44,145 nucleotides of DNA from a virus. The position numbers were made by a program, and so were the translations under genes. Positions within the stretch are counted from its first letter, which is position 1. Every line of letters begins with the position of its first letter. Shown piece by piece: positions 2,667-39,357 of the stretch. The notes beneath the pieces were generated by a model that saw nothing but the letters and a program-made list of their open reading frames with translations, was not told the origin of the DNA and searched no databases. The stretch covers positions 1 to 44,145 of the IMG/VR virus record IMGVR_UViG_3300027834_000002, one strand, 5' to 3'.

Positions 2667-3107
2667 CTAATCCCAGATATAACCTAATTCAAGATATCCT
2701 GATGGAAGATGACAAGACCTATGTTTTTCTATTGTGTCATTATATCTACTCATAGGTACAACTCTCCTACCGTATCTTGATTTATTATCATTGCGTGGTG
2801 CATAGAGTACGTCCTCTATGAGATCATACTCTCTAACCATGCTTAGGTATTTGACTATATATGGAAATCCAGCATACATAGATGCATTATCTTTCATGCA
2901 TTCGACCACTTCATGGTAGATATCGTTTATATCTACGTTAGGCTTACATCCGGTCATATGTTTAATCATGATTCTGATTTCATATAATCCTTCCCTATCA
3001 AATCCTGTTTCCTTGGGTGGTATCGAAAGATACCTATAGAGACTTTCAGTCTCATGTCGTGGGATAGGTTTTAAAACTTCATTATATCTATTTTTCTTGT
3101 CTTTCAT
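2667..3107 (-). CDS. Hypothetical protein (146 aa)
   Basis: Track ORF. No motif recognised. Confidence 0.75.
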   Translation of the reverse strand: MKDKKNRYNEVLKPIPRHETESLYRYLSIPPKETGFDREGLYEIRIMIKHMTGCKPNVDINDIYHEVVECMKDNASMYAGFPYIVKYLSMVREYDLIEDVLYAPRNDNKSRYGRRVVPMSRYNDTIEKHRSCHLPSGYLELGYIWD

Positions 3108-3123
3108 TGGTAACTCCTATTTG

Positions 3124-3297
3124 TTATGGCCTAGGTGCCTTGCGTCTCTCTAATATCCTGTCTATATATTCATAAGAATGAAGATAGTCTATACAACATT
3201 GATGCCCAAAATCAACCAAATCATCTTTAAAACCTTTTTGACCACACCAGCAAGTGTAGGTCTTTTCCATCTTCTTTGAGTCATAATTGTATGTCAT
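3124..3297 (-). CDS. Small Cys-rich hypothetical protein (57 aa, below the track cutoff)
   Basis: My translation is MTYNYDSKKMEKTYTCWCGQKGFKDDLVDFGHQCCIDYLHSYEYIDRILERRKAPRP*. It fills the gap between two genes and has AGGGA upstream of the ATG. Confidence 0.55.
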   Translation of the reverse strand: MTYNYDSKKMEKTYTCWCGQKGFKDDLVDFGHQCCIDYLHSYEYIDRILERRKAPRP

Positions 3298-3302
3298 TAT
3301 CT

Positions 3303-3599
3303 TTATCCCTTATTAAACATTTCTTTACAGCATTCGTTACTGTCAAGGTCATCTATAAAACCTTCCAGGCCACATTCTTGACAGATATACCACATCTCAA
3401 TTCCTGAACCGTGCTTATATGTAGCTATATTATAGTCTTCATCTATGATATATACAAACCCTGTTTCCTGATTCCATTCTATAATAGCGGTATCTCTGTC
3501 TATCCCTTTAGGTATCCTACCGTTTATCAATCTTTCTATTTCATAGTGTGTTCCAGGGTCTGCGCCTAATATATCTAGTTTTACAATATGGTCTTCCAT
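3303..3599 (-). CDS. Hypothetical protein (98 aa) with C-terminal Cys cluster
   Basis: Track ORF with motif CQECG...ECC near the C-terminus. Confidence 0.75.
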   Translation of the reverse strand: MEDHIVKLDILGADPGTHYEIERLINGRIPKGIDRDTAIIEWNQETGFVYIIDEDYNIATYKHGSGIEMWYICQECGLEGFIDDLDSNECCKEMFNKG

Positions 3600-3612
3600 G
3601 TTGTAGCTCCTA

Positions 3613-4059
3613 TTATTTTGACATTACAGGGAAATTGTTGTAATGATATGCTCCTGATAAATCCGTTGTGTCATACATGAAACCATTAACTTCTATCTCT
3701 TTCTCTGTATCCAGTAAATTACAGGTAATATCCTTTCCTTTATTGTTAGGCCTCCATCTTAAAGAAAAACCTGTTTCGTACATGTCAAACCTTAGAAACT
3801 TATTACATTCATCCTCAGTCATAAGTACGGGTGCCCTGTCTTCTTCTTTAATATATGACGTATATAGAGCTACTGAGCTTGTACTTACTTGGTTCCAAGT
3901 TTCACTGGAAATATAATCAAGGCCCCGTTTATCGCAGCGCAGAGACATCGTAACACCTTTTTCTGTAAAATCGAATTGCCTTTTAACTCCTAAACTATCT
4001 ACAGACAATATACCTGCTTTGATCAATAGTTCAACCATTTTCTTTCTTTGATTTTTCAT
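3613..4059 (-). CDS. Early paralog-family protein P1 (148 aa)
   Basis: Track ORF. The N-terminus RKKMVELLIKAGILSV...FDFTEKGVTMSL shares a motif with 4056, 4813, 5159, 5519 and 36042. Confidence 0.8.
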   Translation of the reverse strand: MKNQRKKMVELLIKAGILSVDSLGVKRQFDFTEKGVTMSLRCDKRGLDYISSETWNQVSTSSVALYTSYIKEEDRAPVLMTEDECNKFLRFDMYETGFSLRWRPNNKGKDITCNLLDTEKEIEVNGFMYDTTDLSGAYHYNNFPVMSK

Positions 4060-4298
4060 CGCTTATCCTCTTTAAAGTTTGCATAATACGTGTAATCAAA
4101 CAAGGTGTCCAGGTGGACGTCATCCCATTTTTTAATAGACTCAATCTTTTGTGTGAAGTCTAGCCTATTGAATATTAACGTCTCTACTTTATCCAGATTA
4201 AAGCTAACCATTTTAAGACAGTCCATTGTGTCTACTGTTATTGCTCCAGCTTCAACCAGCTCTTTCTTTATTAAGTGTCTCAGCCTTTTATCGTTCAT
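4056..4298 (-). CDS. Early paralog-family protein P2 (80 aa)
   Basis: Track ORF with RHLIKKELVEAGAITV...VSFNLDKVETLIF. It has 4-nt overlaps on both sides. Confidence 0.75.
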   Translation of the reverse strand: MNDKRLRHLIKKELVEAGAITVDTMDCLKMVSFNLDKVETLIFNRLDFTQKIESIKKWDDVHLDTLFDYTYYANFKEDKR

Positions 4299-4558
4299 GA
4301 TTGAATAGCTCCTAATGTTATTGATGCGCTTAGTTGATTGTTGTCTACTATAACGTTTTCGCTTTTTGCGTCACCATACCCTTTACCTAAAAGGTAATCA
4401 GCGAATGCTTCATTAATCAGGCCATTAGGTGTTGAATGGTTAGGGTATTTGTATAGGAAGTCATCTATCATGCGACTCAATGCGCCTGGGCTGGCTGTAT
4501 AGACTAGCCTTGTTTCTTGGTTATTGTTTATTATTATTTTTACGTCTAGTTTTATCAT
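4295..4558 (-). CDS. Hypothetical protein (87 aa; start moved to the internal ATG)
   Basis: The track ORF 4295..4609 was shortened to ATG 4558, which is preceded by GAGG (AATGAGGTCATAATG). The upstream extension overlaps a tiny SD-led ORF. Confidence 0.7.
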   Translation of the reverse strand: MIKLDVKIIINNNQETRLVYTASPGALSRMIDDFLYKYPNHSTPNGLINEAFADYLLGKGYGDAKSENVIVDNNQLSASITLGAIQS

Positions 4559-4623
4559 TATGACCTCATTAAATCTCTTAACATTATGGCAGCTAGTGCC
4601 AGGATACATATTGGTGTGATCAT
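4558..4623 (-). CDS. Tiny hydrophobic peptide (21 aa), tentative
   Basis: My translation is MITPICILALAAIMLRDLMRS*. It is preceded by AGGAG (GTAGGAGATACAAAATG), and its TAA overlaps the next ATG (TAATG). Confidence 0.35.
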   Translation of the reverse strand: MITPICILALAAIMLRDLMRS

Positions 4624-4633
4624 TTTGTATCTC

Positions 4634-4810
4634 CTACTTAAGAAGTCTCTGGATGTCTGCATTTAACTTAAGGTCATAGGTAACTTGTTTAAGCTTAGCT
4701 TCAACCTTATTTATATTTCTACTTACAGCTAGTTCAGCAATCATAAGTAAGGCACCCAGGAAGATAGCGGATGCTATGCCTATTATTATTTTTGTCTTAA
4801 AGTTATCCAT
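4634..4810 (-). CDS. Small single-pass membrane protein (58 aa, below the track cutoff)
   Basis: My translation is MDNFKTKIIIGIASAIFLGALLMIAELAVSRNINKVEAKLKQVTYDLKLNADIQRLLK*, with one clear hydrophobic helix. It fills an otherwise empty gap. Confidence 0.55.
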   Translation of the reverse strand: MDNFKTKIIIGIASAIFLGALLMIAELAVSRNINKVEAKLKQVTYDLKLNADIQRLLK

Positions 4811-4812
4811 GG

Positions 4813-5151
4813 TTACCCCCCTATAGTCGCAAAGTTAAAAATCCATTCATTTACAAGCGAAACCTTATCCCTTAGCCTAAGTATAACCTTTCCCAAACCT
4901 AAAGGGTACAATCTAGTCAAGAAATTGATTGAACCGATCGACATATATAAGCTTATATTGAGTTCTCTCAGTATACTTTCTTCAAGGTATGAACTAAGAT
5001 AGATAGTTGCTCCAATTGGCACATCAGTCCATATAATCTTGGTATACCTAATTATCACGCTATCTTTAGTGAAAGTTACTATGTCGCCAGATTCCAAGGT
5101 GACGCTACCTTCCTTAATTAACGCATCTTTTAACGTTTGTTTAATCATCAT
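4813..5151 (-). CDS. Early paralog-family protein P3 (112 aa)
   Basis: Track ORF with LKDALIKEGSVTL...VTFTKDSVIIRY. Confidence 0.75.
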   Translation of the reverse strand: MMIKQTLKDALIKEGSVTLESGDIVTFTKDSVIIRYTKIIWTDVPIGATIYLSSYLEESILRELNISLYMSIGSINFLTRLYPLGLGKVILRLRDKVSLVNEWIFNFATIGG

Positions 5152-5158
5152 TCTATTA

Positions 5159-5395
5159 TTAACTCCTATTGTCTATAGAGTTTATACCTATCATTTCTCC
5201 AGTGTTCAGCTCATCCCATGCCCTAAATTCTGTTATGTGGGCGCTCTCCATTGGCGTTGTTTCGTCCTTTGTTACGCCATCTTTAGTGCAAGTGAATGTT
5301 GTCTTATATCCTTTACCCCATTCAACGGTGTAGACTTGATGGGCTATCAGGATGTCCATCATCCTGTTTCTATGTTCTAGTCTGGCCTTGTCCAT
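5159..5395 (-). CDS. Early paralog-family protein P4 (78 aa)
   Basis: Track ORF with RNRMMDILIAHQVYTV...TFTCTKDGVT. Confidence 0.75.
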   Translation of the reverse strand: MDKARLEHRNRMMDILIAHQVYTVEWGKGYKTTFTCTKDGVTKDETTPMESAHITEFRAWDELNTGEMIGINSIDNRS

Positions 5396-5518
5396 GGTTA
5401 GCTCCTAAACATAAAAATACGTGTAATTCGCCTACTAAAAAAACACACCTGCACTCAAGGTTGACTCAAAAGTCGGGAAACGTAGGCAGCTATTGAGTTA
5501 CAGGCACTTTTTAGGGGG

Positions 5519-5836
5519 TTAAATTCGGCTCAAAGTTACTATAAATCTCAAGAGTTTACCTGCGCTTACAGTGTCCCACTCATAATTAGCTACTCTATCA
5601 AAGAAACCTTTATTATCATATTTATAGACTTTTATGCTATCCTTAAACATTACTGTCAAACCGTCATGATTTAAAGCCTTACCTGCTACTAGGGCGTCAA
5701 TCATGTCCTGTCTGGCTAGTTCAACCTCTTGGTTGTGCCTTTCGACGTCATTCAAGCTCTTTAAGATTGTGTCGCTTGCTGAATTCTCAAACTCGACCAA
5801 TCTCTCTAACCTTGCGTTATTCATAATTGTCTCCAT
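5519..5836 (-). CDS. Early paralog-family protein P5 (105 aa; family motif preceded by a helical N-extension)
   Basis: Track ORF with ARQDMIDALVAGKALN...TVMFKDSIKVYKY. Confidence 0.75.
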   Translation of the reverse strand: METIMNNARLERLVEFENSASDTILKSLNDVERHNQEVELARQDMIDALVAGKALNHDGLTVMFKDSIKVYKYDNKGFFDRVANYEWDTVSAGKLLRFIVTLSRI

Positions 5837-5875
5837 TTTGATGGTTAAGGGCGATGGTTTGCCCTATTTACCTGG

Positions 5876-6142
5876 TTAAGAGTAAACTACGACGGTTGCC
5901 TGCTGGTTTTTGATTCTAACTGAGTTGACGTCGGCCAGACCATCCTCTCTTGCTGAAACTGCCTGGGCTATGACCTCTTGTCTCATCTTATTAGTGATGC
6001 AGTTGATACAATTTCCCTTAACGACGTAATCCTCAAACATTTCGATTAACTCTTTGGTGCTGATTTTGATTGTCCTACTATGAAACGAAACGTACTCTTC
6101 GTTTCTATCGCGATCTTTTGATCGCATGTTAAATGTTCCCAT
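5876..6142 (-). CDS. First early gene, hypothetical protein (88 aa)
   Basis: Track ORF. ATG 6142 is preceded by AGGAGA (AATAGGAGACAATCATG). It is the first ORF downstream of the large non-coding region. Confidence 0.75.
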   Translation of the reverse strand: MGTFNMRSKDRDRNEEYVSFHSRTIKISTKELIEMFEDYVVKGNCINCITNKMRQEVIAQAVSAREDGLADVNSVRIKNQQATVVVYS

Positions 6143-6342
6143 GATTGTCTCCTATTAAAGTTTCGTTAAAGTTGATCTATAGTAGTGCAGGGAGTGTGCC
6201 AAACTAGGAGGTTATGAAATAAAGTTTGTAAGTGACTGATAGTACTAGGTTAGATGATATTATGGTGTGTTGTACTACAAAAGTGGAAAGTGTAAAGTCG
6301 TGACGTAAAATGTTCCATTATGTGGTAAAGTAGGTACTATTT

Positions 6343-6368
6343 AGGTGGGAAAAGGTGGGAAAAGGTAG
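6343..6368. repeat. Tandem 10-mer AGGTGGGAAA x2 plus a partial third copy (AGGTAG)
   Basis: Read directly: aggtgggaaa (6343-6352), aggtgggaaa (6353-6362), aggtag (6363-6368). Confidence 0.9.
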
Positions 6369-6400
6369 TGAGAACAAAGAGATATAAAACTGGAGCAATT

Positions 6401-6428
6401 ATTGTAACAAAATGACAAAAATTGTCAC
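6401..6428 (-). promoter_or_regulatory. Candidate sigma70-type early promoter (-35 GTGACA, 16-nt spacer, -10 TACAAT) built from two ATTGT[A/C]ACAA boxes
   Basis: Minus-strand hexamers were read from plus attgta (6401-6406) and tgtcac (6423-6428). The boxes attgtaacaa (6401-6410) and attgtcacaa (6421-6430) are 20 bp apart. The host is unknown, so the consensus match is only suggestive. Confidence 0.25.
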
Positions 6429-6435
6429 AACACGG

Positions 6436-6479
6436 ATGAGACACTTTGAGACACTTTTTGAGACACTTTTATGTCTCAT
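6436..6479. repeat. Iteron-like block: GAGACACTTT x3 direct plus one inverted half-site, bracketed by the 8-bp inverted repeat ATGAGACA/TGTCTCAT
   Basis: Read directly: gagacacttt at 6438-6447, 6448-6457 and 6460-6469, tgtctc at 6472-6477, and atgagaca (6436-6443) inverted to tgtctcat (6472-6479). Confidence 0.9.
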
Positions 6480-6641
6480 TGATGGATTTCAGTGGGAATT
6501 AGGGGAAAATAGGCTGAGGTTAGTGTTGATTTAGGTGAAAATAGGCTAGAATTAGAGGAAATTAGGTTGAGGTCAGGTTGAGGTTAAGCTAGATCAGGTC
6601 GAGATTAGGGTGGATCAGGGTGAAATTAGGTCAGGTTAGGG

Positions 6642-6683
6642 GCAACCTAAAGGGTTGCTGAAGATACTTTGTAAAAGTATCAG
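6642..6683. repeat. Left arm of a perfect 42-bp inverted repeat; each arm is a twin-hairpin module
   Basis: gcaacctaaagggttgctgaagatactttgtaaaagtatcag is the exact reverse complement of 7207-7248. It contains hairpins gcaacc-taaag-ggttgc and gatacttt-gta-aaagtatc. Confidence 0.95.
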
Positions 6684-6720
6684 CTGGATCAGGGTGGATC
6701 AGGCCAGGTTAGGGGTGGAA

Positions 6721-6782
6721 TTAGGTTGAGATCGGACTAGATTAGGTCAGGTTAGGTTGAGATCGGACTGGATTAGGTCAGG
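6721..6782. repeat. 31-bp tandem duplication inside the array (one mismatch)
   Basis: ttaggttgagatcggactAgattaggtcagg (6721-6751) is followed directly by ttaggttgagatcggactGgattaggtcagg (6752-6782). Confidence 0.9.
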
Positions 6783-6817
6783 TTAGGTCAGGTTAGGTTA
6801 GGATTAGGTCAGGTTAT

Positions 6818-6845
6818 CCCACCCCTCAACCCCTACTTCACCCCC
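6818..6845 (-). other. Canonical G-quadruplex motif on the minus strand (C-tract block on plus)
   Basis: Plus reads cccacccctcaacccctacttcaccccc. Minus reads GGGGG-TGAAGTA-GGGG-TTGA-GGGG-T-GGG, which fits G3+ N1-7 repeated four times. Confidence 0.7.
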
Positions 6846-7034
6846 ACGAAACCCGATTAATCCAGGATAACACAAATTATCAAGCAATATCCCGATATAA
6901 CCACCCTCTCAGAGCCACCACAATCGACGTTCTTCCACCCACCTAGCCCTAGGTATGGGCTGACCTAAGATGGCTTAGTCAGGTTAGGGATAGGTTAGTT
7001 TAGATTAAATCAGGGTGGGTTGTTATTACCGCTT

Positions 7035-7064
7035 GGGGGGGTTGGGGTAGGGGGTTGGTAGGGG
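7035..7064 (+). other. Canonical G-quadruplex motif on the plus strand, an imperfect inverted copy of the 6818-6845 block
   Basis: GGGGGGG-TT-GGGG-TA-GGGGG-TTGGTA-GGGG. It is followed by the small hairpin gggg-agaaa-cccc (7061-7073). Confidence 0.7.
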
Positions 7065-7206
7065 AGAAACCCCACTAACCATACAATATGTTTTTTCAAA
7101 AAGAGAAAAAAACTATAGAATGGAATCGAAAGATTTCTATAGCGATGAACGTTCCTTTGACGAAAGTACTTCTCGTCTCATATGTTTTTTTTAAATCTAA
7201 CCCAAC

Positions 7207-7248
7207 CTGATACTTTTACAAAGTATCTTCAGCAACCCTTTAGGTTGC
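7207..7248. repeat. Right arm of the perfect 42-bp inverted repeat
   Basis: ctgatacttttacaaagtatcttcagcaaccctttaggttgc is the reverse complement of 6642-6683. It extends imperfectly by 7 more bp (gttaggg versus ccttaac, 6 of 7). Confidence 0.95.
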
Positions 7249-7380
7249 CCTTAACTTTTCCCCTACCATATGTCGCATAATATTTCATTATAAAATATTA
7301 TTTATTATAAATACCAACTCCCACATGAAACCGTATAAGTTTCTATAGTGACATACCTGTCACACTTAAAACCAATGAGC

Positions 7381-7421
7381 ATAAGAAAAAGGTGGTAAGA
7401 GATATACAATCCCCTACCACC
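7381..7421 (-). terminator. Rho-independent terminator closing the late (virion) operon
   Basis: Minus-sense GGTGGTAGGGGA-TTGTATA-TCTCTTACCACC forms a 12-bp stem (two G-U pairs) with a 7-nt loop, followed by TTTTTCTTAT. It starts 5 nt after the stop codon at 7426. The two wobble positions would be A-C mismatches in plus sense, so the structure is specific to the transcribed strand. Confidence 0.8.
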
Positions 7422-7425
7422 CACA

Positions 7426-7725
7426 TTATCTCTTCCCAATCTCTTGGATAATAAACACTAACGTATTGTCTATTCTATCTAATCTCTTTACAATATGAGA
7501 CTGGAAGTCTTTATAGGTATCTTTCGATACCATCTCCCTAAGCTCTCCTTTTACGATATAAGTTTCAGGTAATGTAACCACTCTCTCTGTTATCCACCCT
7601 AATACTGGCAGTGTCAACATAAGGAATCCTATAAATACCTTTTTCCAAGCTTGGCTCTGAGCTAAGATCAACTCCTTAACACCGTGAGATGCATCCAGTG
7701 GCTCTAACTCTCTTTTATATTCCAC
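7426..7725 (-). CDS. Small membrane protein (99 aa), last gene of the late operon; holin-like candidate
   Basis: Track ORF with a GTG start preceded by TGGAGA. It has one hydrophobic helix (VFIGFLMLTLPVLGWI). Its position at the end of the structural module fits lysis genes. Function not shown. Confidence 0.7.
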   Translation of the reverse strand: MEYKRELEPLDASHGVKELILAQSQAWKKVFIGFLMLTLPVLGWITERVVTLPETYIVKGELREMVSKDTYKDFQSHIVKRLDRIDNTLVFIIQEIGKR

Positions 7726-7744
7726 AATGTCTCCATTAAAGTAG

Positions 7745-8050
7745 CTATTCAGGTTCTAGGTCATGGGCAGCAGCCTCAGCTTTTGCCGCCGCTAAAGCCG
7801 CTGCTTGTTCAGCATCTTTAGCATCCTTCCTAGCCTGCCACATAGCTTTTCTTTCATCGGTGAAAGCAACTACAGCCAAGTTTTTAGTCATATCATCTTG
7901 ATCTGTTGTATTGTCTATGGGTGTTAACACATGCCTATGGTAATTCTTTGATATTTCAACACCATCTTCCAAGATACGTGTAATCCTTCTCACGTTGATA
8001 GCACCTTCATCTGTGATTTGGTGGTCGTACGTTATCTGTTTTGTTAACAT
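7745..8050 (-). CDS. Hypothetical protein (101 aa) with Ala/Glu-rich C-terminal helix
   Basis: Track ORF with a strong SD (TAGGGAGGAAAAATG). Confidence 0.8.
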   Translation of the reverse strand: MLTKQITYDHQITDEGAINVRRITRILEDGVEISKNYHRHVLTPIDNTTDQDDMTKNLAVVAFTDERKAMWQARKDAKDAEQAAALAAAKAEAAAHDLEPE

Positions 8051-8158
8051 TTTTCCTCCCTATACTCTATAGGTAACAGTTATATCTAATTCTGATGTAT
8101 CGCTAAAGTCTGTATCATCAAGGACTGATCTAGCTCCACCTGAAGCTACTATAAACAG

Positions 8159-9799
8159 TCAGATGTCAGTTGAGTTATCAATACAACTAACTATTGTACC
8201 GTTATTTACGATCACATCGGTATCCATAACACCAGGAAATACCGGCGCCGATTCAGGTGAAAACGGTAATCCACCCACTTTAGCTGTCCCAGTACTAGTT
8301 CCTTTCGATGTTAGTGTAATTCCCATATGGACAAAGACCACATCTCCAACCTTTGTGTAAGTACCTGTCTGGGTACCGTATGTTATACCTGTAGTTCCTC
8401 CACCGAACTCCAAGGCTGGTGTCCATGTTCCGTCAGTCTCGTAATCATCGAAGGTATTGGCATCTGCACTTGGGACTGCTGTGGATGGGAAGGCTATCTG
8501 CCCACCGTTAACAGCTAGTGTCTTGTTTATCTCAAGATCACCGGCTAGATAATTATCTTTAGTGTTAGCTTGATAGATACCATATGGGTTAGTTACTGTA
8601 CCACCTGTTACTTCTGCACCAATATATATATCGTAGGCGTTAGTTATAGTCCCAGCCATTCGATATGGTGTTACCTTTAACCCATATGCGCTATCAATCG
8701 TACCAGTATCACCGGTATATGTACCATATGTTATGTCCATTGATGATATCTGCGTATTATTATTAACACCACCAAAAACCTCAGCATGAAACCCCTTAGT
8801 GTAACCAGTATTTTTATGAGTCCCTGATGTCTTCATAGATACATAAAGGCCTTTATTGTACTGGGATGCTTCAGCATTCGTTGTGATCGTCCTGTTAACG
8901 TCTATAGCATCAGTCCATGAATCAGTTGAATTAAGGGTTATATCTAGAGTATCCTTTAAATCTGTAGTACCGTTAACCTCAAGATTCAGGTTAGTCTCAA
9001 TGCTCCCAGCGAAATAGTTGTCTTTAGTGTTAGCTTGATAAATACCGTGGCCTCCTACCATAGTACCGCCAGTTACTTCTGGTGAAAGGTAAATATCTTT
9101 CATACTAGTAACTGTACCTGCTTGACGGTATGGGTATATCCTTAAACCGTAAGCGTAATCAGTTGTTCCAGTATCTCCAGTAGTATTACCGTATATAAGC
9201 TTCAAAGCTTCAATACGTGCAAGATTGTTAACCCCTCCGTGCGCACGTAGATCTTCACCTACAACGTATCCAGTATTCTTGGCTGAACCGCTAGAGTACA
9301 CTCTTACTCTATTGCCTATAGTTGTATATGAACCTTCCGAATTAGATGTTATGGTCTTATTAACATCTATACCTGTTGATCCTTCATCAGTTACAGACTC
9401 ACTCATTAACACTCCACCAGTAAAACTCCTTGTCCCATCAGCCTTTATATAGATAGCATGATCGTCATCGCCCAACCCATCCATGCCTCCATGGTCGTGC
9501 TTATGGAGTGTGGTGGCTCCAGCGTCCGTGAGGTCTGTATAGTTGGTTGATGTTAGGTGGTAATATTCGTCAGTTGTACCTCCTTGTAAACCGCTTAATA
9601 AGTTGTGACTTGTAATGGCTGCTGATAATGTGTTCCACATAGCAGCTCCAACAGTGTTATCAAGGCATTGATAAGAAGCATCGTTAGTCTCATCAAGCCA
9701 ACAATCACCCACTTCATAACCATCATTCATGTCATCATTAACTGTGGGTGCTGCCGCTTTGCCTTTAAACAATCTAACGTTTATAGGCTTCCATGCCAT
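8159..9799 (-). CDS. Tail fibre protein (546 aa) with two ~135-aa internal repeats
   Basis: The N-terminus GYEVGDCWLDETNDASYQCLDNTVGAAMW and the motif HNLLSGLQGGTTDEYYHLT are classic podovirus tail-fibre signatures. The protein is Gly/Thr/Asn-rich, has repeats at residues 143-277 and 298-432, and sits in the T7 gp17-equivalent position. Confidence 0.85.
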   Translation of the reverse strand: MAWKPINVRLFKGKAAAPTVNDDMNDGYEVGDCWLDETNDASYQCLDNTVGAAMWNTLSAAITSHNLLSGLQGGTTDEYYHLTSTNYTDLTDAGATTLHKHDHGGMDGLGDDDHAIYIKADGTRSFTGGVLMSESVTDEGSTGIDVNKTITSNSEGSYTTIGNRVRVYSSGSAKNTGYVVGEDLRAHGGVNNLARIEALKLIYGNTTGDTGTTDYAYGLRIYPYRQAGTVTSMKDIYLSPEVTGGTMVGGHGIYQANTKDNYFAGSIETNLNLEVNGTTDLKDTLDITLNSTDSWTDAIDVNRTITTNAEASQYNKGLYVSMKTSGTHKNTGYTKGFHAEVFGGVNNNTQISSMDITYGTYTGDTGTIDSAYGLKVTPYRMAGTITNAYDIYIGAEVTGGTVTNPYGIYQANTKDNYLAGDLEINKTLAVNGGQIAFPSTAVPSADANTFDDYETDGTWTPALEFGGGTTGITYGTQTGTYTKVGDVVFVHMGITLTSKGTSTGTAKVGGLPFSPESAPVFPGVMDTDVIVNNGTIVSCIDNSTDI

Positions 9800-28701: not shown

Positions 28702-30507
28702 TTACCAGAAGAAGTCATCCCCCCTGTTAAAGATGTTTTGTGCTCTGATTTGTTCATTGCATTGTTCTGTAACTGTTTTTGTTTTTCCAATCTGCTCTCC
28801 ATTTGGGATATGTGCCTCATGCCAAGCTTTCGCTTCTGCTATAGGCTTTGATTTCATAGACGGTGCTAGTTGATCAACTTGGATAGCAATACCAAAAGCC
28901 ATAACCATATCATCATGTGCACCTTTCTTCGCTCGTGCTTTACCTGTTGAAGTTCTTATAAAGGTAAGCATTTCACCTATTAATCTTTGACTATGTATAG
29001 CACCAGCTTCATCTATCAACCATTCTTTAATGCCAGATATTAACTCTCTCTTTGAAGCTGAGTCTGTTCTCCATCCTTTCTTAAATGTAACACCGTTATT
29101 TACAACATCATATCTTGGAGCCATAAATAGGTTAGGTATGTCAAGATCTACAGCTTTATCGAATGTAGATAAGCCAGGCCCTGTTGTTTCAATAGCAACC
29201 CACGGATAATCTTCTTCGAAAGTAAATAGAATAGCTATTATCTTTATAATTCTTGCCATAAGAACTTCATCTAGCCTTGAATAATAAGTTGCCGCTATAG
29301 ATTTAAGATTCCTATCATATACTATAACACAAGCATAATCACCATCTTCAGTACCTTCAACTATATCAGCTGCTATAACATATTCATGATCTTTATTAGG
29401 GTCTGTATAGCAAACTAAATAATCCTGTCTATCTAAAGGTTTGTCTACCTTTTCGCTCGAGAAATCCTCATGCATTAAGTGGTAGTATGACACTGGGTTA
29501 TCATTAAGTTCTCTTAAAACCATTAAGTAGTCAAGAGCCGTTCCACTAAATACAGGGTTACCGGATCCAATATAACAGAGATTTATCTCCTGATCCATCT
29601 CTTGCTCATCATACCTAAGACTTTCCTTGACATACCATGGAGACTTTAAAACTTCTTTCGGTTTCCATTTATCACCTAGTCTACCTTTAGTATTCTCATT
29701 AGGTGCAGGCCAAACACAGTAAATGTTTTTAGATTTAAGTGGATGCATCGGCCAACGTAATGTTATTTTCCTGGTGATTCCGCTTGTAACTAAATCATAA
29801 TACTTACAATTTACCCCAAAAGGAGTACCTATGGCAATCCTACATAGAGATGCACCAGCTCCAGATGTCCATGCTTTAGCATCAGTGTCTTTCCATTTAG
29901 AAAACTCATCGTAAAAGATAGCTTTATATCTTCCACCAGTTGAAAACTGTACATTATTGGATTCTCCTGTTAAGACTGAGCCTGTAGCTGGATTGATTAA
30001 CTTTAGTTTATTGTCATGTTCTTTAACATCATACCCTTTAGGTACTAACCATTTAGGCAACCTAGCTATCACATACCTAAGCTTAGGAAATAGTGACGAC
30101 ATATTACCTCTATCATCAACAAACATTTCCTTCCTTGAGCCAAGTAAGAAGTCATTCCCTGGTTTCGGGCTTAGCCAAAACCATAACATAACTAAACATA
30201 TCATCCACGTAGCACCCATATCTCTACACTTTTCCCAGACAACATCCTCTCCTACTTCTATAATTCTCTTTAAATCAAGAATAGCGTCATCCTGGAAAGG
30301 GTATGTTGCGAACGGTAGGTGAGACATAACAGCAGTGGGTCTTGGATCATAAGTAAAGAAAAACACATTAAAAGCAAAGACTATATCTTCGTAAAACAAT
30401 CTCTTTAATGATTCCTTAAGTATAGGGTCTCTTTGAGCTTTCTTTAATATCTTGCTACGCCATATAAGGTTCTCTCTTGGGTCTTTTGGATATTTAATCT
30501 TATCCAT
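28702..30507 (-). CDS. terL: Terminase large subunit (601 aa)
   Basis: ATPase motifs WEKCRDMGATW (Walker A-like) and AIFYDEFSKW (Walker B). The C-terminal nuclease motif is GAHDDMVMAFGIA. It lies directly after the TerS candidate. Confidence 0.9.
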   Translation of the reverse strand: MDKIKYPKDPRENLIWRSKILKKAQRDPILKESLKRLFYEDIVFAFNVFFFTYDPRPTAVMSHLPFATYPFQDDAILDLKRIIEVGEDVVWEKCRDMGATWMICLVMLWFWLSPKPGNDFLLGSRKEMFVDDRGNMSSLFPKLRYVIARLPKWLVPKGYDVKEHDNKLKLINPATGSVLTGESNNVQFSTGGRYKAIFYDEFSKWKDTDAKAWTSGAGASLCRIAIGTPFGVNCKYYDLVTSGITRKITLRWPMHPLKSKNIYCVWPAPNENTKGRLGDKWKPKEVLKSPWYVKESLRYDEQEMDQEINLCYIGSGNPVFSGTALDYLMVLRELNDNPVSYYHLMHEDFSSEKVDKPLDRQDYLVCYTDPNKDHEYVIAADIVEGTEDGDYACVIVYDRNLKSIAATYYSRLDEVLMARIIKIIAILFTFEEDYPWVAIETTGPGLSTFDKAVDLDIPNLFMAPRYDVVNNGVTFKKGWRTDSASKRELISGIKEWLIDEAGAIHSQRLIGEMLTFIRTSTGKARAKKGAHDDMVMAFGIAIQVDQLAPSMKSKPIAEAKAWHEAHIPNGEQIGKTKTVTEQCNEQIRAQNIFNRGDDFFW

Positions 30508-30516
30508 ATATTACCC

Positions 30517-31179
30517 CTATTCTTCATCTGAATTTATTATACTCATAACATTATCTATCAACTCATTGTTTGACATCTCCTTGACCTGAGTATGAGCATG
30601 TAAGTTTAATATCTTCTTAGGTTCCTCGCCATTCTGTTTTGAGTATCCACCCCTATCTAATATTTCTAAAGCAATCTTTGTCGTAAGGCTTTCGTTATCG
30701 GAAGTCTTCATTGTATTTATTAATAGGTCAAAAGCATCTGCACATGAGTTTATTATAGATTGCTTAATGTCTATAACGCTTGAATCAACCATCTGATCTA
30801 ACCTATCTTTATACTCTTGAAAGTCTTCCCTTTTCTTTAGGTTAGCCATGTAAGTCCTGGATCGCTTGAACTTTATCCCTAGTTGACGATTAGATGTATT
30901 CTCAGTCGTTGTAACCATGTAACGTGCTATAGCTTTCTGTGCTCCATTTAATGGTTTTAGTTGAGGTTTTTCCTCTTCAACTACTTCAGGTTCAGGGTAA
31001 AGCTCAGCTCTATGTTTCTCTAGTAGCTCGTTGAAATCTTCTCTACGACGCAAAAAGCCTATAGTGTTAATATGTTTATTGAAACGTTTAGCGATTTCCT
31101 TATTAGTAAGCCATCCGGATGCTTTAGCGATATGTTTAGCTATTGCTTGTTGTTCATGTGTTAGTGGTCTCTGTGCCAT
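30517..31179 (-). CDS. terS: Terminase small subunit candidate (220 aa) with two tandem HTH-like repeats
   Basis: It is immediately upstream of terL. The start was set at ATG 31179 after AGGAGAGCAGTA. The duplicated segment is PL(T/N)..Q.AIA......(T/S)N..(I/L)..(R/K)F......T...L..REDF.E. Confidence 0.6.
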   Translation of the reverse strand: MAQRPLTHEQQAIAKHIAKASGWLTNKEIAKRFNKHINTIGFLRRREDFNELLEKHRAELYPEPEVVEEEKPQLKPLNGAQKAIARYMVTTTENTSNRQLGIKFKRSRTYMANLKKREDFQEYKDRLDQMVDSSVIDIKQSIINSCADAFDLLINTMKTSDNESLTTKIALEILDRGGYSKQNGEEPKKILNLHAHTQVKEMSNNELIDNVMSIINSDEE

Positions 31180-31570
31180 TACTGCTCTCCTTCCCTCTCC
31201 AGAAAGACCTCTTGCCACAATACTTTACAGCTAAGTAGAATTTATGGGCCATCTGTTTCCTTAACCAGTTGACCAGTTGAAATTTAGAGGGATTATTTTT
31301 AATGGTCGTTAACATATTTTGGTAAAATATACTATCGGAGTACTTCTTATCTACACTAGTTTCCCCAAAAGCATACATCCAATCATGTATTGCGCATGAT
31401 TTACGCATACATAGTCCTAAGAAACGATCAGGAACAAATATATCACCTAACTTGCCTGGGCCACAACCTCCTTTACCTATAACATTTGCAATCTGTTGCT
31501 TAGTTGCATAAGCGTAACTACATGGCTGTTTACCATACGGTGATGGTATATATAAGTCTTCAGTATTCAT
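31154..31570 (-). CDS. Hypothetical protein (138 aa), DUF1353-like motif
   Basis: Track ORF. FVPDRFL...CAIHDWMY...SDSIFYQNM resembles the HDxxY core of DUF1353 phage proteins (from memory). Confidence 0.7.
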   Translation of the reverse strand: MNTEDLYIPSPYGKQPCSYAYATKQQIANVIGKGGCGPGKLGDIFVPDRFLGLCMRKSCAIHDWMYAFGETSVDKKYSDSIFYQNMLTTIKNNPSKFQLVNWLRKQMAHKFYLAVKYCGKRSFWRGKESSNGTETTNT

Positions 31571-34633: not shown

Positions 34634-35154
34634 TCAATTAAAAGATTTTATATCATCCAAAACGCAATGAGGTCTCTTATCAGCTTCTATTAGAGCATCT
34701 TTAACTCTACAAGCTCCTTCAAAAGCTTTATAACTGCCGTGATATTTTTGTTTACCTCCCTGACCTGTATGCTGAACATCCCACATTCCTTTGGATTTAT
34801 TAAAAGTAACACCTGATTTTCCGGATGTGTTATGGCTTTTTTCCTGAGAATTACAGTGGTGTCCTATTTCCATTAAGTTATCAATTCGATTATCATCCCG
34901 AACATGATTGATATGATGGATTTCATTTTCTGGAAAATATCCTTGAGTATAAAACCATGCAAGTCTATGTGTAAGGTAAGATTTACCGTTAGCTCTGATT
35001 TGTCGATAACCAGACACCTTATTTAAACTCCCAGCAAGCGCACCAGTTTTTACATTTTTTTTGCTACATCCTTTAACCAATAAAAGTTACCAGTATCGGG
35101 ATCGTACCTCAGAATTTCTTTTAATTCTTCCTGTGTTAATCGTGTCAGGCTCAT
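34634..35154 (-). pseudogene. HNH/AP2 homing endonuclease interrupted by a -1 frame change in an A8 run (would be about 173 aa if repaired or slipped)
   Basis: ATG 35154 (ATGA overlap with the upstream stop) gives MSLTRLTQEELKEILRYDPDTGNFYWLKDVAKK and then stops. Frame -1 continues NVKTGALAGS...HRLAWFYTQGYFPENEIHHINHVRDDNRIDNL...SGKSGVTFNKSKGMW. The join lies in the minus-strand run AAAAAAAA (35055-35062). The N-terminus matches the intact paralog at 38866. Confidence 0.8.
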
Positions 35155-36762: not shown

Positions 36763-37522
36763 TATATCCTCTTTAATAAAATTTAGGCATAGCTTTATCA
36801 TAAGACCGTAGTGGATACATAGTTACAGGGTTAAGCAAACCACCCACTTACTATATCCAAACAGTCACCAATACAATTCTTACACTCAGTAAAAATCACT
36901 GAGAAAATAATACAGGGTATCAATCCTACACTTTAAGATTAGCTATACTTTAAAACACACTCTTTATCAGGTACCTAATCAACTTCAGGAAAGGTGAGAA
37001 CCTGGGACACCAGTTTTATCTTTAAAGAAAGCTACCTTGACAGCTTGAATTCCACGTTTTGCATGTTTATCTAAATAAAGGAAAGCTAAAATTCCCCTTA
37101 CTTAACGCCCGTCTTAAGGCGGAGTGTTGTTTCTTTACTATTAAAAACATTTGTTGTCTTCCATACTTGTAGGAAGATTTTTAAGTCTCCCTTTTCAGGG
37201 AGGGTGAAACTAAGCCACTACTTTTTTAACGGCTTGCAAACCGTTCAGGTAAAGATTAGGTTGCTGTGAAAACCTGTATATACTAAATGCCTAATGCTAT
37301 AGCAATAGAACTATAACGTTCATGTTGACCTTAAGCCAAAGATTCATAGGCATATCCTTATCTAGTTCATAAAAGCTTTCAACGCTTTTATATTACCTTT
37401 TTATTTTAGAGCTAACTCTAAGGAAAAAGAAGGCACTTTAAAAACCTAATTATGTAATTCCTCTCTATACATTTGTCCAAGATAAGAGAGAATATAAGCT
37501 GTTTGCTTTACAAATCTAACTT
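36763..37522. other. 760-bp ORF-free, hairpin-rich intergenic region (candidate structured RNA or regulatory region)
   Basis: There is no minus-strand ORF of 60 aa or more. Many short stem-loops are present: ctcagt-aaaaatc-actgag (36885-36903), tcttcc-atacttgta-ggaaga followed by ttttta (37158-37184), ctccc-ttttca-gggag, aacgg-cttgcaaa-ccgtt, aggtt-gctgtgaa-aacct, and the palindrome tgctatagca. Confidence 0.7.
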
Positions 37523-38072: not shown

Positions 38073-38866
38073 TAAACCTCCATGACTTTAATCTTAAACC
38101 TGCCTGATGATTGTGGCGTTATCGTAATCTCAAAACCACCAAGGGTTGTAGGTAGATAATTCGCAACCTCAGCATAACTTGTTGTACCCTCTTCTAAAGT
38201 TTTAAGAAAAGTACCGCACTCTATAATATACCTTTCTTTTGCTATGAAGTTGCTCTTGCCTGAAACAGAGAGCTGAGGATACGCTTTGAAGACTTTACCA
38301 TGTGAGTGACCGAAAAGGAACAAGTCTGCATCATATGACTTAAGATCTTTCTCGTACCTTGTTAAACTTGCTCCACCTGTTCTCCCTGCGCCATGACCAT
38401 GGTGCGCCCTGATCCTTACAGTGCGACCACCGTGGCCGCCTTTAGTTAAGACAAGCTTGTAGTAGCATGAATAACCAGCGTACGTCAAGCCTAGTGCCTT
38501 ACAGATGCGTTTAGTGGGGTTCGTACCGGAGTGTTTGAGTATGGTTTCTTCATGGTTCCCTGTTCCATAACCTATGAACTTATCTTTAATGGGGGTTAAG
38601 AGGTCGCATGCCATTTCTATCTGGTCATCAATTATTGCGGAAGACTTTGTCTTGTCTATGGCCTTGGAGTATCTAGGATCCTTAGTCCCGATTGCATCTA
38701 CTATGTCTCCTCCCCCAATGTAAAATAAATTGTCATCCTTGCATGAGATGAAAGATTTGAACGCTGCTTCATCAGCAAGCTTGTTACCTAAATGTACGTC
38801 AAAAATTGGCCGCAGCCTGATACTTTTAAACTCTGAATAGTTAATCCGTCTGTAGATTATCTCCAT
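38072..38866 (-). CDS. Calcineurin-like metallophosphoesterase (264 aa)
   Basis: It carries the full MPP motif set: DVHLG, GGGDIVD, GNHE, HHGHG, GHSH. Confidence 0.85.
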   Translation of the reverse strand: MEIIYRRINYSEFKSIRLRPIFDVHLGNKLADEAAFKSFISCKDDNLFYIGGGDIVDAIGTKDPRYSKAIDKTKSSAIIDDQIEMACDLLTPIKDKFIGYGTGNHEETILKHSGTNPTKRICKALGLTYAGYSCYYKLVLTKGGHGGRTVRIRAHHGHGAGRTGGASLTRYEKDLKSYDADLFLFGHSHGKVFKAYPQLSVSGKSNFIAKERYIIECGTFLKTLEEGTTSYAEVANYLPTTLGGFEITITPQSSGRFKIKVMEV

Positions 38867-39357
38867 TAGTCTTCTCCTGTAAAGCAGGTTAAAAATTTCG
38901 CTCGCACGGTTTTGTTTACGAAAAAAGCTTGGGTAAAATCCTGGTAGGAACCGTAATATATTCCTCTATACCTTACTCTCCATTTTTTACCCTTCTTTCT
39001 CCAGCGAATCCCAGTTACGCCAGACGTATTGTTGACCTGGACACCCCTGTTTTGCATATTGCACGCATGTGTCGCATGTCTTAAGTTTACCCAGCGATCA
39101 TCTATTCGGACTCTGTTCCAGTGATCCACTTGATGCTCCGGAAAATAACCCTCCATATATAGAAATGCCAGGCGTGCTCGTCTATAGAGCTTATTATTAG
39201 TTCTTATTCGCCAATATCCATCAGATCCTAACCCACCAGCAGTGTCTCCAGGTTTAATTATATTACTACGAGCAACCAACCACACCATCTCACCAGTCTC
39301 CGGATCGTACCTCAACAGCTCCTTAAGTCTCTTCTGTGTTAACTTTTTCTTACCCAT
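38866..39357 (-). CDS. HNH homing endonuclease with AP2-like DNA-binding domain (163 aa), the intact copy
   Basis: N-terminus KLTQKRLKELLRYDPETG, HNH core HQVDHWNRVRIDDRWVNLRHATHACN, then SGVTGIRWRKKGKKWRV (AP2-like). It is free-standing between unrelated genes. Confidence 0.85.
   Translation of the reverse strand: MGKKKLTQKRLKELLRYDPETGEMVWLVARSNIIKPGDTAGGLGSDGYWRIRTNNKLYRRARLAFLYMEGYFPEHQVDHWNRVRIDDRWVNLRHATHACNMQNRGVQVNNTSGVTGIRWRKKGKKWRVRYRGIYYGSYQDFTQAFFVNKTVRAKFLTCFTGED

Follow-up and report, generated by a model that had tools for sequence, protein, structure and literature searches.

A one-directional TTAGG/TCAGG repeat array between the late and early genes of an uncultured phage, with a possible role as a protein-binding lattice at the genome junction

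The window analysed here is the whole 44,145-nt stretch of the IMG/VR virus record IMGVR_UViG_3300027834_000002, and the element in question is an array of short direct repeats at 6490-6815, which sits in the largest gap free of open reading frames (ORFs), at 6143-7425 (1283 bp). The two ends of the window share 127 identical bases and the ENA contig of the same sample fits a 141-nt overlap; since both assemblies close to a circle of 44,018 bp, we regard the window as a complete, circularly assembled phage genome. Every credible gene lies on the minus strand. Read in the sense direction, the genome starts with small early ORFs (from 6142 downwards), the first of which (5876-6142) encodes an 88-aa protein, and continues with an initiator-like protein, a DnaB-type helicase, an exonuclease, a thymidylate synthase, HNH endonucleases, a ribonucleotide reductase, the large terminase subunit TerL (28702-30507), the portal and the major capsid protein, ending with large virion and tail proteins and the last late ORF (7426-7725). 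Directly after this last ORF there is an intrinsic terminator (7390-7422, minus strand) with a 14-bp stem followed by UUUUUC (-21.5 kcal/mol, z = -5.4), while on the other side of the array lies a sigma-70-type early promoter (6401-6428, minus strand; GTGACA-16 nt (TG-extended)-TACAAT, matching 10 of 12 consensus positions), predicted to drive the small early ORFs from 6142. The promoter is conserved in the relatives described below, and an equivalent late terminator is also found there. An earlier note on this DNA had placed the array between late and early transcription, and rightly so: it lies 575 nt downstream of the terminator at 7422-7390 and 62 nt upstream of the -35 box of the promoter at 6428-6401. 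Because of this position between late terminator and early promoter, the junction is apparently untranscribed.

The array itself contains 25 copies of T[TC]AGG in 6490-6815, all 25 on the plus strand, where the density outside the spacer would predict 0.56 (Poisson p = 2e-32), and the opposite-strand counts are one for CCTAA and none for CCTGA. The longer form RTYAGGT has 50 matches in the window as against 24 +/- 4 in shuffled sequences; 17 of the 50 fall in 6561-6984, every one of them on the plus strand. The copies are arranged in two parts, both annotated on the plus strand. In part 1 (6490-6636), (A/G)T(T/C)AGG pentamers build up degenerate units of 21-32 nt, with a G-rich plus strand and a C-rich sense (minus) strand; part 2 (6685-6815) has three 31-nt units (6721-6751, 6752-6782 and 6783-6813) and ends in a pure pentamer run at 6773-6813. 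Tandem Repeats Finder returned periods of 5, 10, 21 and 31 nt, with the first two 31-nt units 97% identical (one mismatch), the third 71% identical, and pairs of 10-11 nt at 100% identity. The degenerate RTTAGG-type array and the tandem 31-bp duplication that the earlier note had described are both confirmed by these counts, as is the further patch that it saw near 6975-7020, with extra copies in 6960-7020. The motif spacing has its maximum at 10.5-10.6 bp (p = 0.049 over all periods from 4 to 40, p = 0.003 for the band 10.2-10.8), which lends modest support to helical phasing; the 21- and 31-nt units correspond to 2 and 3 helical turns. The extreme G-over-C skew also holds up. In 6481-6640 there are 59 G, as the earlier note had counted, and 9 C, where it had counted 10, giving a skew of +0.74 that is the highest of all 160-nt segments (mean over the whole sequence -0.18, standard deviation 0.16, maximum outside the spacer +0.27), and the sense RNA of the array holds 119 C and 28 G in 326 nt.

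No ORF runs across the array, and its periods are mostly not multiples of 3 (5, 10 and 31 nt); a coding role was therefore rejected and we treat the array as non-coding. Nor is it an artefact of one assembler, since the independent MEGAHIT k141 contig from ENA ERZ27237540 is identical to the window, base for base, over 2876-9040. The array 6490-6815 also contains six GATC sites, in GATCAGG and GATCGG variants, at about six times the genome-wide density; they recall the Dam-regulated hexamers of P1 pac.

The two parts of the array are split by a non-repeat module of two hairpins (6637-6684), which was overlooked in the earlier note. It belongs to a 49-nt inverted repeat, the left arm of which (6635-6683) holds the hairpins GCAACC..GGTTGC and GATACTTT..AAAGTATC and interrupts the array, while the right arm (7207-7255) reads on the plus strand as a weak terminator-like hairpin. 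The arms are 98% complementary, lie 523 nt apart and each consist of a hairpin pair; between them they bracket the second half of the array, a C-tract, a unique core, a short patch of further copies and a G-tract. The module could be invertible or form a cruciform, or the two arms could serve as outward-facing terminators. It is missing from the spacers of all relatives and occurs in two copies only within the window, without a match in 185,579 species genomes, which leaves a mobile or host-derived origin unsupported.

The bracketed elements follow the array in a defined order, all on the plus strand. The C-tract (6818-6854, CCCACCCCTCAACCCCTACTTCACCCCCACGAAACCC) marks a sharp flip in strand skew and adjoins the array in every relative. 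The unique core (6926-6961, GACGTTCT-N14-CCTAGGTATGGGCT) is present in four genomes, being common to the window and the relatives L001, L020 and L021, and is deleted in L025. The second short patch (6960-7019) starts with the palindrome CTGACCTAAG-ATGG-CTTAGTCAG and is made up of TTAGG, TCAGG and GTTAG copies, and the G-tract (7035-7065) reads G7 TT G4 TA G5 TT GG TA G4 and is partly conserved in the relatives. The C3-5 tracts of 6818-6854 and the G4-7 tracts of 7035-7065 are G-quadruplex-type motifs on opposite strands, flanking the unique core. Further towards the late genes the spacer becomes AT-rich (20% GC at 7250-7340; relatives have duplicated AT-rich 34-mers), and in the whole spacer we found no DnaA box within one mismatch and no IHF consensus.

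On the early side, three tandem copies of TGAGACACTTT(T) (6437-6470, plus strand) lie directly upstream of the early -35 box, where relatives have 4-5 copies. The GAGACAC(TTT) tandem also occurs in unrelated phage contigs of IMG/VR (L010, L012, L013, L014 and L015); L010, L014 and L015 have extra copies nearby, some of them inverted, and in L010 the tandem adjoins a C7-TATA-G7 palindrome. GAGACAC(TTT) may be a widespread regulator-binding motif. The predicted leader of the early transcript (6143-6394, minus strand, ~250 nt) is 85-90% conserved in the relatives, a conservation that exceeds the needs of a simple spacer, and it is C-rich and G-poor (for example 47 against 9 in 6211-6370), with AGGTGGGAAA repeats at 6343-6366.

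The lineage was searched for in IMG/VR, with protein and DNA-pattern queries, in the JGI metagenomes and in a set of 5.8 billion proteins. It was found in four samples only, namely ERZ27237540, which is the window's own, ERZ27237542, JGI 3300027852 and JGI 3300002180, and none of these searches returned more distant relatives. Comparison of the window with the relatives L001/L011/L024, L020/L022, L021/L023, L025, L080 and L085 showed that the gene order is kept, with 39-94% protein identity for the genes on either side of the spacer. Their spacers align well over 6143-6475 of the window, from the early leader through the promoter to the GAGACAC repeats, and diverge beyond this point. Where the window has its 330-bp array, the relatives have ~85 bp with about five GATTNGG/GATCAGG copies, abutting the same C-tract. 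Beyond a variable unique segment they then carry a second array of ~300 bp, built from palindromic GTTAGA-N4-CCTAAC units with a period of 19 nt (at least seven units at L001 9260-9490; found also in L025, L020/L022, L021/L023 and L080), the counterpart of which in the window is the 60-bp patch, with the G-tract and AT-rich DNA next to it. This second array uses the GTTAG half-site of the window's array in an inverted, dimer-like arrangement. The order of elements kept in the relatives, whose flanking genes show 65-94% protein identity, is thus GAGACAC repeats, short GATTNGG array, C-tract, GTTAG-based second array, G-tract and terminator, and the total length of the spacer is near-constant (1283 bp in the window, 1291 bp in L001).

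The features conserved across the lineage are the GTTAG half-site arrays on both sides of the C-tract, the spacer size and the skew switch, from G-rich to C-rich at the C-tract, which is kept in all relatives. On the evidence of this alignment, the long TTAGG/TCAGG array is a lineage-specific expansion, and its near-perfect internal duplications suggest that the slippage was recent. The earlier note had proposed to discount a specific cis function if relatives with the same gene order had no comparable array, or if the array was hypervariable in length without phenotype. The relatives carry no more than the ~85-bp rudiment in place of the 330 bp, which indicates that the large size is lineage-specific and evolutionarily labile. 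This lability weakens the case that the exact array is needed, but not the case that an array belongs here. The contigs of the relatives end at differing places, that of L085 at the junction of array and C-tract and those of L022, L023 and L080 inside the second array; since the sites differ, we treated them as assembly breaks rather than as genome ends. The relatives also encode an ArdA anti-restriction protein (PF07275; L084 3984-4340, L085 1437-1793), whose gene is fourth in line behind the early promoter. The early ORFs of the window yielded no equivalent, and the early gene sets of window and relatives differ.

The phage has no close cultured relative. The best matches of its TerL are T4-type terminases at no more than 24% identity, with no sequence match in the PDB, the capsid protein is 23% identical to that of Arthrobacter phages, and the portal is a weak match to the P22 type. 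Neither an RNA polymerase nor a DNA polymerase turned up when 50 different ORFs were scanned with PHROGs and Pfam. A blastn search of 6100-7500 against 50,697 phage records returned nothing, and the exact motif string is absent from IMG/VR. We found no tRNAs and no Rfam match at the gathering score, with a relaxed search giving only chance matches at the level of snoRNAs. The second-largest ORF-free gap (36802-37522, 721 bp) lies amid the DNA-metabolism genes and is rich in stem-forming inverted repeats. It too has no Rfam match, and HNH endonuclease ORFs lie 1.3-1.7 kb away (34634-35080 and 38866-39357); this gap could hold a self-splicing intron or another structured RNA.

The reading of the array that we tentatively favour, while giving it somewhat less than an even chance, is that of a cis-acting lattice of protein-binding sites at the genome junction, with a part in forming the ends or in packaging. 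The layout of phage T7 is its basis, and it is from this layout that we infer that a protein binds, which may be TerS or an initiator, and where the genome ends lie. The left ends of T7, T3, SP6 and gh-1, which we read directly, each carry ~6-13 copies of a lineage-specific 6-8-nt motif, in arrays placed partly inside the terminal repeat and partly right behind it, ahead of the early promoters. T7 has 13 CCTAA copies, of which 11 are the full CCTAAAG; its segment 165-350 holds 56 C and 22 G, and the terminal repeat also has a C5/G5 element and G-tracts. In the window the order in the sense direction is terminator, C-tracts, a few motif copies, unique core, G-tracts, long C-rich array and early promoter. 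By analogy with T7, then, the junction would hold a packaging or end-forming site, with the physical ends or a terminal repeat placed roughly within 6816-7080, between the long array and the short patch. The (A/G)T(T/C)AGG half-sites, recurring at about every half or full helical turn, would be sites for a DNA-binding protein of the phage, and the lattice would have grown through replication slippage of 10-, 21- and 31-nt units, so that the array could load or slow a protein that marks the packaging or end site.

The extreme enrichment, the single orientation and the hierarchical structure of 5, 10, 21 and 31 nt all favour such a lattice, as do the spacing maximum at 10.5-10.6 bp, the position in the largest ORF-free gap between a strong terminator and a conserved promoter, and the order of elements kept in the relatives. 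A similar array in the unrelated contig L042, described below, fits this reading too, and the ArdA gene of the relatives, shortly after the early promoter, is where it would be expected in the leading, first-expressed DNA. The terminase type is no argument against fixed ends, because TerL of the window and gp19 of T7 match Pfam Terminase_6N equally weakly. Several observations nevertheless weigh on the other side. Both assemblies are circular, closed by k-mer overlaps of 127 and 141 nt, and the genome ends are placed only by the presumed likeness to T7; the contigs of the relatives end at several spacer sites and not at one. The terminase genes, TerL and a candidate TerS (30517-31218), are 22 kb from the array and have no non-coding gap beside them, while pac and cos sites usually adjoin terS. 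The T4-type matches of TerL and the weakly P22-type portal are typical of headful packaging, and in replication and transcription genes the phage does not resemble T7, neither an RNA polymerase nor a DNA polymerase having been found. The helical phasing is just modestly significant. Finally, about five copies suffice in the relatives, which means that most of the 25 copies in the window are not essential. The fourfold change in array size at a conserved spacer length suggests that selection acts on the amount of lattice and not on its exact sequence.

If the arrays were the iterons of a replication origin, a phage initiator would bind both the array and the second array, open nearby AT-rich DNA and load a DnaB-type helicase. 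We consider this unlikely, with several points in its favour: an initiator-like protein (2024-2446; phrog_9474, phrog_270) and a DnaB-like helicase are encoded, the spacer has AT-rich stretches in the window and in the relatives, the 21- and 31-nt units span whole helical turns, and there is no iteron cluster in or near the initiator gene itself, for which reason an origin beside that gene was rejected. Like the iterons of lambda ori, P1 oriR/incA and SPP1 oriL/oriR, the array consists of non-coding direct repeats at whole helical turns in a genome with initiator-like and helicase genes. Iterons are, however, usually 17-22 bp long, few in number and adjoining an AT-rich unwinding element, whereas the basic unit in the window is a pentamer within degenerate super-units of 21 and 31 nt, and the AT-rich DNA lies more than 400 nt from the array. 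The lack of DnaA and IHF consensus sites in the spacer also speaks against an origin, although such sites are not obligatory for phage origins. Moreover, the array changes fourfold in length, and changes in sequence, among close relatives whose initiator-like proteins are 56-61% identical, and the initiator annotation is itself weak, with E = 1e-9 over part of a 140-aa protein.

It can also be supposed that the array has no function and is the by-product of microsatellite-like slippage of a short ancestral motif cluster under little constraint. The near-perfect local duplications (97% for the 31-nt pair, 100% for the 10-11-nt pairs) are what slippage would leave behind, homologous arrays differ fourfold in length among relatives, the relatives' contigs break repeatedly in this region, and 45 IMG/VR contigs have runs of TYAGG pentamers, in settings that are mixed and include coding ones. 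Yet phage genomes leave little room for spare DNA, and no other large gap exists in this one; 25 of 25 copies have retained one orientation, every relative has retained GTTAG half-site arrays on both sides of the C-tract, and the total spacer length is conserved even though the arrays have swapped sizes. For these reasons a purely neutral expansion seems to us quite unlikely.

The earlier note had raised a third possibility, that the array is a loading site (rut) for the termination factor Rho, which would act as a back-up insulator stopping escaped late transcripts before they reach the early operon on circular or concatemeric DNA. The composition fits: the sense RNA is C-rich and G-poor, untranslated and essentially unstructured, with a minimum free energy of -6.9 kcal/mol for the 131-nt part and -1.8 kcal/mol for the 147-nt part, no better than shuffled sequences, and it exceeds the stretch of at least 80 nt of such RNA that characterises rut sites. 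The C-rich stretch ends 62 nt ahead of the early promoter, and the relatives retain a C-rich block of 80-100 nt in the same place (~28 C to 8 G per 80 nt, sense). The position fits less well, since the strong intrinsic terminator at 7422-7390 and the two double-hairpin modules lie upstream; behind such a terminator little read-through is to be expected at the array. Rut sites are, besides, compositional, with ~80 nt sufficing and no precise repeat, and a 330-nt array of a precise pentamer motif with helical spacing is left unexplained; nor do the second arrays of the relatives fit, being palindromic and without skew. T7 has the same kind of C-rich array, yet its late transcription is carried out by a Rho-insensitive polymerase, T7 RNA polymerase not being acted on by Rho. 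We therefore hold a rut function to be improbable, the compositional signature notwithstanding.

A wider interpretation would take one-directional TYAGG(T) arrays just inside the leading end to be a device of unrelated phages, either shared or arrived at independently, that acts on the biology of DNA ends. It would cover the present lineage, T7, which has CTTTAGGT on the same strand, and L042 (IMGVR_UViG_3300003690_000059, contig positions 12561-16209), an unrelated viral contig of 52.6 kb. At 1869-1990 L042 has 16 alternating TTAGG/TCAGG copies followed by four GATCAAAGC copies, immediately behind an intrinsic terminator; relative to transcription the array is oriented as in the window, and its sense strand is C-rich. 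This array lies ~0.6 kb downstream of a gene that passes the Pfam threshold for a terminase small subunit (Terminase_2), and downstream of it are small ORFs, each preceded by a duplicated promoter-like 40-mer. L042 is, however, the only one of the 45 contigs with TYAGG pentamer runs that resembles the window, the others showing coding, convergent and divergent contexts or belonging to giant-virus bins. Such a device might slow the packaging motor to allow the terminal cut, or might serve as a Chi-like or decoy array shielding the first-entering DNA from host exonuclease or defence proteins. At present this is speculation, and very improbable.

Two further candidates can be dismissed briefly: a CsrB-like sponge RNA from the plus strand has no credible conserved pair of promoter and terminator, and the array that would encode it is not conserved; and a telomere or contaminant, suggested by the arthropod telomeric (TTAGG)n, shares only the pentamer sequence with an array that is degenerate, consists of TTAGG and TCAGG together, lies inside a circular assembly and is syntenic in related phages.

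If the array does mark the junction as a protein-binding lattice, arrays of this kind would provide a landmark, legible in sequence alone, for the ends and packaging signals of uncultured phages with all genes in one direction, and the T7-type terminal repeat arrays would be extended to a lineage without a cultured relative. Should the wider interpretation as a leading-end device be true, the T7 repeats, unexplained for 40 years, would gain a general function. For annotation, the lesson is that this region is non-coding control DNA, and not a gene, an RNA family or a contaminant. The class of element would not surprise a phage biologist.

Among known systems, the terminase sites P1 pac, SPP1 pac and lambda cosB bear a likeness to the junction in that clusters of short motifs flank a unique central segment and a helical phase is suggested. 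P1 pac has TGATCA/G hexamers on both sides of the cut, SPP1 has pacL and pacR, and lambda cosB has its R sites, and the array of the window has its six GATC sites. The known terminase sites differ in having 3-7 copies, a mapped cleavage point and a location in or beside terS, where the window has 25 copies at a distance of 22 kb from the terminase genes.

The closest comparison is with the arrays at the left end of T7, which Dunn and Studier reportedly named SRL and SRR in 1983, and for which we know of no defined function. In both T7 and the window, at least ten non-coding copies of a 5-8-nt motif lie in one orientation with a C-rich sense strand; the first host-type early promoters follow closely downstream, all genes of the genome point the same way, and additional copies of the motif lie beyond a unique segment that also has C- and G-tracts. 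When complemented, the T7 motif reads CTTTAGGT and shares TTAGGT with the consensus of the window, and in the T7 group as in the present lineage the motif is lineage-specific and fast-evolving. The differences are also clear. The adjacency of the array to a terminal repeat is a fact in T7, whereas in the window the ends are placed from the layout; T7 has heptamers at ~13 nt, whereas the window has pentamers at 5 and 10.5 nt in 31-nt super-units, in an array twice as long; and the window phage has neither an RNA polymerase (single-subunit in the T7 supergroup) nor a DNA polymerase of the T7 type, with TerL standing before the portal and the major capsid protein in mid-genome and not at the right end. 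Because the T7-type enzymes are lacking and a terminal repeat beside the array is only predicted, membership in the T7-type class cannot be claimed. The resemblance to the T7 arrays is one of layout and, by analogy, probably also of role. Arrays in the junctions and control regions of phages are familiar, and what is new here is the motif, the 31-nt super-unit, the size and the extreme skew, in a lineage without a cultured relative.

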